From the NCBI GenBank assembly GCA_964342815.1, contig CAYFHS010000037.1:1-43910 (forward strand): a stretch of 43,910 nt of DNA. Reading direction: 5' to 3'. Source of the stretch: an uncultured archaeon (GTDB lineage Archaea > Thermoplasmatota > Penumbrarchaeia > JASLWR01). Below, in pieces: positions 15,544 to 17,735 of the stretch (position 1 is the first letter of the stretch; the number at the start of each line of letters is the position of its first letter). The notes below the pieces were generated by a model. It was not told where the DNA came from. It searched no databases and worked only from the letters and a program-made list of their open reading frames with translations. The position numbers were made by a program, and so were the translations under genes.

Positions 15544-15774
15544 TAATTGATGACCGGTTGGAAGATCACCACCGATGTATAAACATAATTCATATTATTT
15601 CTATCAGAATTATTACAGTGGCTTTCTCAGCAATTCGACCTAGTTGATTCCCTTAAATCTGCGATGCAGGTAATATATCGCCACTAAACAAATATAAAAG
15701 AAATACATATAGCCTATCCTATATAAAGGAAAAAATTCCAAAACTTGACAAAAAACTTTTTAGAAGGGATAAAA

Positions 15775-16344
15775 ATGGCAGAGACTAAGGTGGTGAATAT
15801 CGTTGCTTCCGCATCCATAGGTGTTACTCTTGACCTTCATGAGATATCCGAAAGGTTCGCTGAAGCTGAGTATGACAAGAATAGATTCCCCGGGCTGATT
15901 TACCGGATGAAAAAGCCAAAAGTTGCAATCTTACTTTTCACCAGTGGTAAACTCGTGTGTACTGGAGCGAAGAGCATCGAGCAGACCAAGGAGGCCATCA
16001 ACATTATCCTTGAGCGTATTAAGGCCCTTTTCGCCGAAAAACATCCCAATGAGTTGGGCGATATCCCCAAGGACGTCCCCGTGGAGATACAGAACATAGT
16101 TGCCACCGGCGACCTGAATACAATTCTGAATCTTAACAAGGCCGCGGTCTATCTTTCTTTTGAGAAGGTCGAATACGAACCGGAGCAATTTCCGGGTCTC
16201 GTATACCGACTGGATGAACCAAAGGTCGTAGCCCTTTTATTCGGTTCGGGAAAGGTTGTGTGTACCGGTGCGAAGAATACAAAGGACATCAATATCGCAG
16301 TTGATATTATTATTGACGAACTGAAAGGGATCGGACTTATTTAA
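15775..16344 (+). CDS. tbp: TATA-box binding protein
   Basis: Two TBP repeats: NIVAS...FPGLIYRMKKPKVAILLFTSGKLVCTGAK and NIVAT...YEPEQFPGLVYRLDEPKVVALLFGSGKVVCTGAK. Confidence 0.97.
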   Translation: MAETKVVNIVASASIGVTLDLHEISERFAEAEYDKNRFPGLIYRMKKPKVAILLFTSGKLVCTGAKSIEQTKEAINIILERIKALFAEKHPNELGDIPKDVPVEIQNIVATGDLNTILNLNKAAVYLSFEKVEYEPEQFPGLVYRLDEPKVVALLFGSGKVVCTGAKNTKDINIAVDIIIDELKGIGLI

Positions 16345-16365
16345 GTTAGTGTTTTCACCGGTTCC

Positions 16366-16373
16366 TTTTTTTT
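16366..16373 (+). terminator. T8 tract, probable archaeal terminator of tbp
   Basis: Oligo-T 21 nt after the tbp stop. Confidence 0.5.
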
Positions 16374-16612
16374 GGAAATTCAAGCGGAAGCCCTAGTCGT
16401 TTTCAAGGGGTTTACTGATATTTTTTCAATCATCTTAGTGTTATTCTTCAAGAGACCAGCGGCCCCTAGGCAAACGCTGGTCTCGTTTACGATGTATAAA
16501 GTATAATTTTAACATAATTATAGGTCCGCTTGGTGCTGACCAAGGGTGTGACACCCTTTATTATTTCGAATATCGATGATTATTCTATGAACATATCAAT
16601 CGGATTTGCCAT

Positions 16613-16860
16613 CCCATACTGGTCCATTTGCTCCACAAACGGCCCTGTATCTTCCAGCCGGTTTGCTGTAAGACGCACCCACCCGAAATCCTGCGCTGGC
16701 CCGTATTGGTCCATTTGCTACGCAAACGGCCCTGTACCTCCCACAGAAATCCTTATGGATTTCGAGGGAGCAGGGCAATTCTAGATTGCCCGGAGTAACA
16801 CGGGCTTCCAGCAAGTGTGCTGTAAGACCCCTTACCCCGCCTCGCCTGCACGGATTTCGA
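16613..16860 (-). ncRNA. Putative structured non-coding RNA of unknown family
   Basis: Duplicated hairpin modules (16613-16649 / 16700-16736; 16651-16674 / 16805-16828), extra hairpins (16738-16770, 16773-16791), long-range pairing 16684-16694 with 16848-16859. G-U pairs favour the minus strand. No credible ORF. Confidence 0.45.
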
Positions 16861-17105
16861 AACGTTATAGGATTATACTCAATCATTTTTGAATCGTACC
16901 TGCGCCCATGGCATTCCGTTGCACGCTTCGCTACGATGCATTGGAAATGCGTCTGCATCCTCGGGATGCTACCCTACGGATGCATCAAGATGCAACTGCG
17001 CTCTCGGGGTGTAATCCTTCGGGCGTCTGCTTGGGCTCGCAGGCCCTCAAGAGAAGAGATTATAGATTCAATTGGGTCTAAATAATATGTTACAACACAA
17101 ATCGT

Positions 17106-17735
17106 TCATCTATCCTTCTTTTTTATACTATAGAGTAAAAGTCTCTCTTTATCGAAGTCACAGTGTGCGACTTCATCGAATTCGAACCTATCCTTGAAAG
17201 GCTCTGTCAACCTATAAGTGTCTGCCAGAGTGCTTGCGGCCAGATATATGGTGCAGTCTTTTTTCATGTACTCCAAGGATCCCTCAAGGAAACGTATCGA
17301 TGTTTCCACACCATTTTGACCGCCGATGAGGGCTTTTTCTTCCCATTTCGGAAGCTTTTCACCCATGTAGGAAGGAAGATAGGGTGGATTGAAAACTATA
17401 ATGTCGAACTTAGCCGAAATCCCCTCGAAAAGATCCCCGCAGTGAAATTGTGCGTTTACATTGTTTTTTACCGCGTTGTGTTTTGCATTTGCCACGGCTG
17501 TAGGGTTGATATCGGTCCCCTCAACCACAGCACCTTGTTTTGCGGCAAAGATGCTTATGAGCCCGGTTCCAACACCGATTTCAAGAAATCGAATATCTGG
17601 TTCTACTTGGATATTGTCGGTTACGAGAAACGTGTCCTCACGTGGTGAATAAACTTCGGCAAATACATCAATGTCGATCCCGCCTGGCATGGTGAAATGA
17701 TACGACTCAACGATTTCATTCCTCTCAATGCGCAT
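17106..17735 (-). CDS. HemK2/N6AMT1(MTQ2)-type SAM-dependent methyltransferase
   Basis: VYSPREDTFL, LEIGVGTG (motif I), TDINP, IVFNPPY, ALIGGQNG. Confidence 0.9.
   Translation of the reverse strand: MRIERNEIVESYHFTMPGGIDIDVFAEVYSPREDTFLVTDNIQVEPDIRFLEIGVGTGLISIFAAKQGAVVEGTDINPTAVANAKHNAVKNNVNAQFHCGDLFEGISAKFDIIVFNPPYLPSYMGEKLPKWEEKALIGGQNGVETSIRFLEGSLEYMKKDCTIYLAASTLADTYRLTEPFKDRFEFDEVAHCDFDKERLLLYSIKKKDR

Follow-up and report, generated by a model that had tools for sequence, protein, structure and literature searches.

The structured feature at 16613-16860 of the window (the whole 43,910-nucleotide stretch of DNA from an uncultured archaeon that was analysed) probably consists of small hairpin repeats, non-autonomous and nested within one another, which likely spread as DNA, rather than of a single RNA gene. 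The modules recur across the genome, lie inside each other, are present in one sister species and absent from another at orthologous sites, and show covariation that is specific to one strand. Inserted repeat DNA is preferred to a dedicated RNA gene because the nested repeat copies sit in a block of about 690 bases that sister species lack. The original prediction had put forward a novel structured RNA, with a tandem aptamer, a ribozyme-like RNA or a non-autonomous mobile element as its three options. The last of these fits best, whereas the novel structured RNA is not supported as a dedicated gene, the unit being dispersed, lineage-restricted and situated in a block missing from three relatives, with copies that sister species have gained or lost.

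Architecture and fold of the locus

The genomes compared are referred to as G000 (this genome), G001 (same genus) and G002 and G003 (same family). The block is flanked by two convergent genes, a TBP gene (15745-16344, plus strand) and a small methyltransferase gene (17106-17735, minus strand). The parts of the locus, with the basis for each, are the following.

16392-17084, no strand assigned: lineage-specific mosaic block (flank comparison by eye, boundaries approximate to a few nt)
16845-16862, minus: 5' arm of the host hairpin (closing helix) of unit 2, UUUCGAAAUCCGUGCAGG (fold; the host also occurs without A-B)
16829-16844, minus: G-rich 5' junction segment of the host hairpin, CGAGGCGGGGUAAGGG (copy alignments)
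16805-16828, minus: hairpin A, copy 2, GUCUUACAGC-loop-GCUGGAAG, with a conserved A-G mismatch (repeats, fold, covariation)
16737-16804, minus: 68-nt module of two hairpins, nested between A2 and B2 (own repeat family)
16700-16736, minus: hairpin B, copy 2, UACAG-stem-triloop-stem-CAAUAC, with a G-U pair and purine-purine mismatches (repeats, fold, covariation)
16675-16699, minus: 3' part of the host hairpin, comprising the conserved GGCCAGCGCAGG motif, the closing-helix 3' arm GGAUUUCGG and the start of the G-rich tail, GGGUGGG (alignments, fold)
16651-16674, minus: hairpin A, copy 1, of the second A-B module, in the 3' tail of the same host (repeats)
16613-16649, minus: hairpin B, copy 1 (repeats)
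16602-16615, minus: conserved 3' tail end of the host, GGGAUGGCAAAUCC, resuming after A1-B1 (comparison with C19, C10 and G001:C81)
16886-17025, no strand assigned: adjoining, different hairpin repeat family with GCATC/GATGC palindromes (at least 15 genome copies or fragments)
16435-16546, no strand assigned: further repeat family of the same block, including a hairpin at 16452-16484 (copies on C8, C2, C42 and C4)

A repeat search of the window recovers module B as a direct repeat (16613-16656 and 16700-16743, 86% over 44 nt) and module A as another (16651-16674 and 16805-16828, 88%). The 37-nt B copies do differ at four positions, as had been counted, but one of these, and not two, falls in the loop; another replaces a C-G pair by U-G on the minus strand, and the remaining two are at the base of the stem. 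The three differences between the A copies had all been placed in the loop, which is right if the loop-closing position is included. The spacing of the two modules is also as described, with 1 nt between them in copy 1 and 16737-16804 intervening in copy 2. RNAfold applied to 16596-16866 reproduces hairpins B and A, the two extra hairpins formed by the 68-nt insert of copy 2, and the proposed long-range closing helix, which here pairs about 16683-16699 with 16845-16862. The minus strand of this region reaches -116.7 kcal/mol (z -5.16), a value equalled by none of 200 shuffles, and the plus strand -97.3 kcal/mol (z -4.84 against shuffles).

With regard to known RNA families, the reported lack of a match is borne out: a cmscan-type check against Rfam gave no match at gathering scores over the window. 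The covariance models of Rfam 15 without a match at gathering include those of riboswitches, ribozymes, RNase P, SRP, omega-RNA/HEARO and group II intron domains. At E<=10 over 16250-17200 the sole match is SNORD115 (16.7 bits, 16544-16615), a chance match that lies outside the element. Readings as a hammerhead-like three-way junction, a K-turn or an H/ACA or C/D RNA were discarded, the defining core motifs being absent on inspection by eye. A decayed coding sequence was likewise rejected because the open reading frames at 16596-16958 (minus), 16530-16784 (plus) and 16786-17085 (plus) have no Pfam match and lie in DNA that is absent from the relatives.

A lineage-specific block of mosaic repeats

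The TBP and methyltransferase genes are adjacent in all three relatives compared, where the spacer between them measures about 75 nt (G001, G002 and G003) against 761 nt in G000. By flank comparison the extra DNA of G000, some 690 nt, spans about 16392-17084. When the spacer was searched against its own genome by sensitive BLAST, four or more repeat families were resolved in it as a mosaic: one at 16435-16546, the A/B family at 16613-16850, an inner hairpin at 16763-16806 that has copies of its own, and the GCATC-palindrome family at 16886-17025. Assembly of the DNA runs X3 and X4 yielded only short contigs broken at repeats, with no bridging contig and no joint.

The other families of the spacer are also dispersed. 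Hairpins of the GCATC family (GCATCC-tcg-GGATGC and similar) are much commoner in the genome than A-B, examples being C11:95837-95959, C33:374-482 and C29:62-169. The 16435-16546 family contains a perfect 10-bp hairpin (16452-16461 with 16475-16484) and has copies at C8:46881-46923 and C2:318163-318215, as well as on C42 and C4.

Modules nested within modules

The A-B module is a 62-nt two-hairpin unit that sits within a host hairpin of about 70 nt, the short form of the whole measuring 110-130 nt. Two types of host are found. Type 1 has GAAAUCC-type or CGAUUCC-type arms, the GCCAGCGCAGG motif and a GGGUGGGGGCUUGGGAYGGC tail; type 2 has CUUUUUG/CAAAAAG arms. In both, the closing helix, which constitutes terminal inverted repeats of 7-14 bp, covaries (GAAAUCC/GGAUUUC, CGAUUCC/GGAAUCG, CUUUUUG/CAAAAAG). 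Bare hosts, which lack an A-B module, are found as well, both of type 1 (C3:82211, C4:65263, C11:79038, C32:2551 and G001:C81) and of type 2 (C7:130095), and A-B-like modules with quite different stems exist outside both host types. In G001, the elements at L165 and L168 (C75 and C90) have the same extra hairpin, GGCATGACAGG-N6-CCTGTCATATT, just 5' of the element, and this hairpin is another module travelling with host type 2.

The 68-nt insert of copy 2 is itself homologous to free-standing two-hairpin modules (C11:88123, C6:36502, C2:100021 and C9:87569), and A-B with this module nested inside it is found again in C10, G001:C33 and G003:C9. Copies in G003 carry further hairpins inside B and inside the insert, for a total of 255-304 nt. 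Each module being independently repeated, the multi-way junction of the original prediction is therefore an accretion of independent modules. The second A-B of the window lies inside the 3' tail of the host, in the arrangement GGGUGGG-[A1-B1]-GGGAUGGC, and this produces the apparent tandem duplication. Copy 1 could have arisen by unequal crossing-over between two G-rich segments or by a second insertion.

Constraint on a single strand

The claim that structure is under selection, as RNA or as single-stranded DNA, is supported by compensatory changes. R1 is a covariance model of the A-B core, and 23 copies were aligned to it. Across the family both sides change in 18 of the 23 pairs, and 90.5% of cells pair against 28-56% with slid partners, values attained by no shuffle; the fit of this alignment is to the model itself, and its rows are related copies. 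The departures from Watson-Crick pairing are unequally shared between the strands, with 37 G-U against 10 A-C and 30 purine-purine against 8 pyrimidine-pyrimidine mismatches. Furthermore, in each of the six copies examined, the strand corresponding to the minus strand of the window is the more stable one, by 10-14 kcal/mol. Selection, or a concerted process, thus acts on one single strand, and RNA and single-stranded DNA fit this result equally.

This is the evidence on which a structured small RNA family could be proposed. Under such a reading, the minus strand of the window would encode a trans-acting or protein-binding RNA whose genes duplicate and accrete helices, and the hairpins would be RNA domains. 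Strong covariation and a strand-specific bias towards G-U and purine-purine pairs are what it would lead one to expect, and the junction motifs (GAAGAUACAG, CAGUAU and GCCAGCGCAGG) are kept while the stems differ. Two genera retain the long multi-helix form, whose stems are compensated at an orthologous locus, and these two observations would fit a selected RNA as well as a mobile module. The failure of Rfam to match is compatible with it too, and the family would be a new one because no Rfam family matches. Nevertheless, no conserved promoter-like or terminator sequence accompanies the copies in the flanks compared, their gene context and orientation vary, and each supposed domain is also found alone or recombined, in mosaics of unrelated repeats. 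Taken with the turnover described below, where seven of eight compared loci are not common to G000 and G001, these observations leave an RNA family an unlikely explanation. With regard to transcription, 15 runs are listed; two metatranscriptome runs from one sample share words with the window, and their contigs cover just 15762-15920, in the TBP gene, which counts neither for nor against transcription of the element.

Distribution and turnover of the family

The search for the modules in the genome and in metagenomes that had been suggested as a check turned up dispersed copies, so the unit is not single-copy. G000 has about 8 A-B copies (8-10 by R1), namely two in the window and others on C19, C10, C2, C11, C8 and C9, the C10 unit carrying the 68-nt insert as in copy 2 of the window. 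The same model counts 7-12 copies in G001 and 8-15 in G003, and an R1 search of G002 and of 33 further genomes of the same class found no A-B core. In a pattern scan of all species representatives, 8 of the 47 matches are real. They come from just two Thermoplasmatota MAGs, which bear the titles Thermoplasmatota archaeon ETNP2_MAG_1 and uncultured archaeon SRP077602_co2_347. A pattern scan of metagenomes gave five real matches, from two marine data sets and mostly identical to MAG copies. Three viral matches were dismissed as chance.

The A-B copies are 75-93% alike, and their positions differ between close relatives. Among the eight loci compared between G000 and G001, whose flanks are 77-92% identical, one position is shared (C10 and G001:C33), and the stem changes of this orthologous pair are fully compensated. 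The other seven are unshared: the window, C2 and C8 in G000, and L168, L179, L182 and L188 in G001. The C2 copy belongs to a block of 465 nt and the C8 copy to one of 330 nt, where the orthologous sites of G001 measure 18 and 75 nt, and the four G001 copies lie in blocks of 250-480 nt against 0-30 nt in G000. No direct repeat (target-site duplication) is visible at the boundaries of C8, C2, L168, L179 and L188, where the sites differ by composite blocks and the borders of a single element are undefined.

Two FGE-sulfatase (PF03781) paralogues in G000, at C19:32622-33542 (L166) and C10:1792-2715 (L177), are 75% identical overall and have identical C-terminal halves. Each has an A-B element 60 nt downstream, one with and one without the 68-nt module, as though a duplication or gene conversion had taken the A-B element along.

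The position of the copies relative to genes bears on a further explanation, namely that they are exapted 3'-end elements, serving as terminators or mRNA-stabilising hairpins for adjacent convergent genes. Many copies do lie 20-90 nt from a stop codon, the block of the window is situated between convergent genes, and the T5/A5 arms of host type 2 could, in either direction, be read as oligo-T terminators of the archaeal kind. However, host type 1 has G/C runs in place of the T runs, and relatives manage with a 75-nt spacer between the same genes. Moreover, with rough ORF calls and related copies, the better-paired strand is in most cases antisense to the neighbouring gene (13 of 22 on the 3' side), and a co-oriented position downstream of a gene is seen in just 5 of 21. 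A role of this kind is therefore very improbable as the explanation of the family.

The search for a mobiliser

If the modules move as DNA, an enzyme would be expected, and Y1 (HUH) transposases are one candidate. According to such a scheme, the family would consist of REP/BIME-type or PATE-type elements moved in trans by an IS200-like or RAYT-like Y1 transposase that recognises single-stranded DNA hairpins, and strand-specific conservation of hairpins is what Y1 enzymes impose. Pfam-confirmed Y1_Tnp genes are found in G001 (two full and two fragments) and G003 (one), and the repeat-free G002 has none, a distribution that is suggestive as a pointer to the mobiliser; yet the four genomes are related, and their correlation is not a test. 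The mosaic, intergenic arrays are also as in BIMEs (PMC2817692).

Against this, G000 carries 8 copies, and no Y1 transposase (PF01797), TnpB or reverse transcriptase was found in its assembly, where a tblastn search for Y1 gave only a 53-aa fragment (E 0.007); absence of Y1 from the genome is unproven because the assembly is 89% complete. Furthermore, the hairpins flanking the Y1 loci of G001 and G003 are unlike A or B, and R1 has no match there. No conserved GTAG is present either: the copy alignments contain no GTAG/CTAC head, and their conserved frames are AUACAG...CAGUAU and UCUUAC...GGAAGA. The copy number is also far below that of typical REPs. Mobilisation by a Y1 enzyme thus seems decidedly unlikely.

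The Y1 genes in question include two solitary IS200-like genes (PF01797), L195 1423-1890 in G001 (on C65, 155 aa) and L196 1465-1956 in G003 (on C1, 163 aa), the G003 gene having typical flanking hairpins, GCCAGTGTCTTTAGGCACTGG and GCCAGCTCCTTTAGGGGCTGG. In G000, two hairpins about 60 nt apart at C40:4956-5104, CCCCGCAGCTTGCTGCGG and CCCTGCAGCTTGCTGCG, match both flanks of an IS200-like Y1 gene of G001, and C36:43071-43117 matches one of them. From its sequence, the C40 segment looks like a transposase-less, PATE-like IS200 remnant, and this trace of an IS200 end in G000 is a point in favour of a Y1 mobiliser. A reverse-transcriptase domain (PF00078, E 6e-40) is present in a 438-aa open frame at L197 (G003:C83:17128-17766), in G003 only among the four family genomes.

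A proposed mode of spread and its implications

In the composite of mobile modules, which remains the preferred reading, the host hairpin is outermost, with A-B in its apical region, the 68-nt module between A and B (copy 2) and a second A-B module in the 3' tail of the host, and the whole is part of the mosaic block inserted between the two convergent genes in this lineage only. The modules would spread, or would once have spread, as DNA, with a preference for intergenic DNA and for the loops or junctions of earlier modules. We infer DNA mobility with a single-stranded intermediate: the stems would be kept on one strand (the minus strand in the window) since it is the single-stranded form that is recognised, most likely by a structure-specific recombinase or transposase supplied in trans.

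Several findings weigh against a mobile element. No transposase or recombinase could be linked to the family: Y1 and TnpB are absent from the G000 assembly, and the IS200-like ends of G001 and G003 do not resemble A or B. Neither a target-site duplication nor a clean single-element boundary is seen, the differences being between composite blocks; nothing in the 75-93% likeness of the copies points to recent activity, and about 8 copies is a low number for a selfish repeat. A more specific proposal, which we regard as doubtful, is that A-B and its companions represent an unrecognised archaeal class of mobile hairpins, defined by structure and targeting loops and junctions, with an enzyme outside the Y1/TnpB families or an RNA intermediate. 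If true, such a class would account for the Russian-doll nesting, for covariation confined to one strand and for the absence of visible target duplications.

Nested-repeat mosaics of this kind mimic large multi-junction RNAs, and screens based on fold energy and covariation will flag them as ncRNA candidates, so that copy-number and empty-site checks are needed before RNA claims are made on them. The marine Thermoplasmatota considered here carry several nested hairpin repeat families with structure kept on one strand, which suggests that archaea have a structure-specific transaction on DNA (or RNA) that is yet to be described. The turnover of the hairpin repeats also means that intergenic regions change quickly between sister species. 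The A-B family offers a clean case of three-level nesting combined with strand-specific covariation, and introduces no new principle.

Comparison with known repeat systems

Integron attC sites and IS200/IS605 ends are single-stranded DNA recombination sites defined by structure. The A-B family is like them in its conserved fold, variable sequence, conserved mismatches and single functional strand; unlike them, it has no integrase, cassette ORFs or adjacent tnpA/tnpB, and the analogy is one of mechanism only. The BOX repeats of Streptococcus are modular, with the arrangement boxA-boxB(n)-boxC. Like these and MITEs in general, A-B elements are non-coding, have terminal inverted repeats and variable internal modules, and are present or absent between close relatives. 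They differ in that no target-site duplication is visible at the composite block borders and that the internal modules are independent repeats, and, from MITEs, in that no autonomous element with A-B termini is seen among the Y1, TnpB and RT families searched.

With bacterial REP/BIME sequences (REPIN), which RAYT Y1 transposases mobilise (PMC2817692), the A-B family shares short imperfect palindromes, an intergenic location, mosaic arrays, conserved structure and lineage specificity. It departs from them in having no GTAG head, no repeat-flanked RAYT found and no Y1 in its own assembly, about 8 copies against hundreds, and modules that lie inside one another's loops instead of alternating side by side.

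The closest described analogue, by likeness of description, would be SMR-A of Haloquadratum walsbyi, an element of about 110 bp whose inverted termini have no relation to any transposon and which makes no target duplication (PMC3119063). SMR-A is too short to code, is often integrated in other small mobile elements, and its mobilisation is enigmatic (PMC3119063). The two differ in host (Thermoplasmatota for A-B, Halobacteria for SMR-A), and A-B copies are fewer and more diverged, their internal hairpins covary strongly on one strand, and their nesting reaches three or four levels. In descriptive terms, the A-B family resembles SMR-A, with a short form of 110-130 nt that nests in and under other modules. 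Both are archaeal, both are about 110 bp long and non-coding, with prominent terminal inverted repeats apparently unrelated to known transposons and, as far as the composite block borders of A-B show, no target duplication, and both nest in other small elements.
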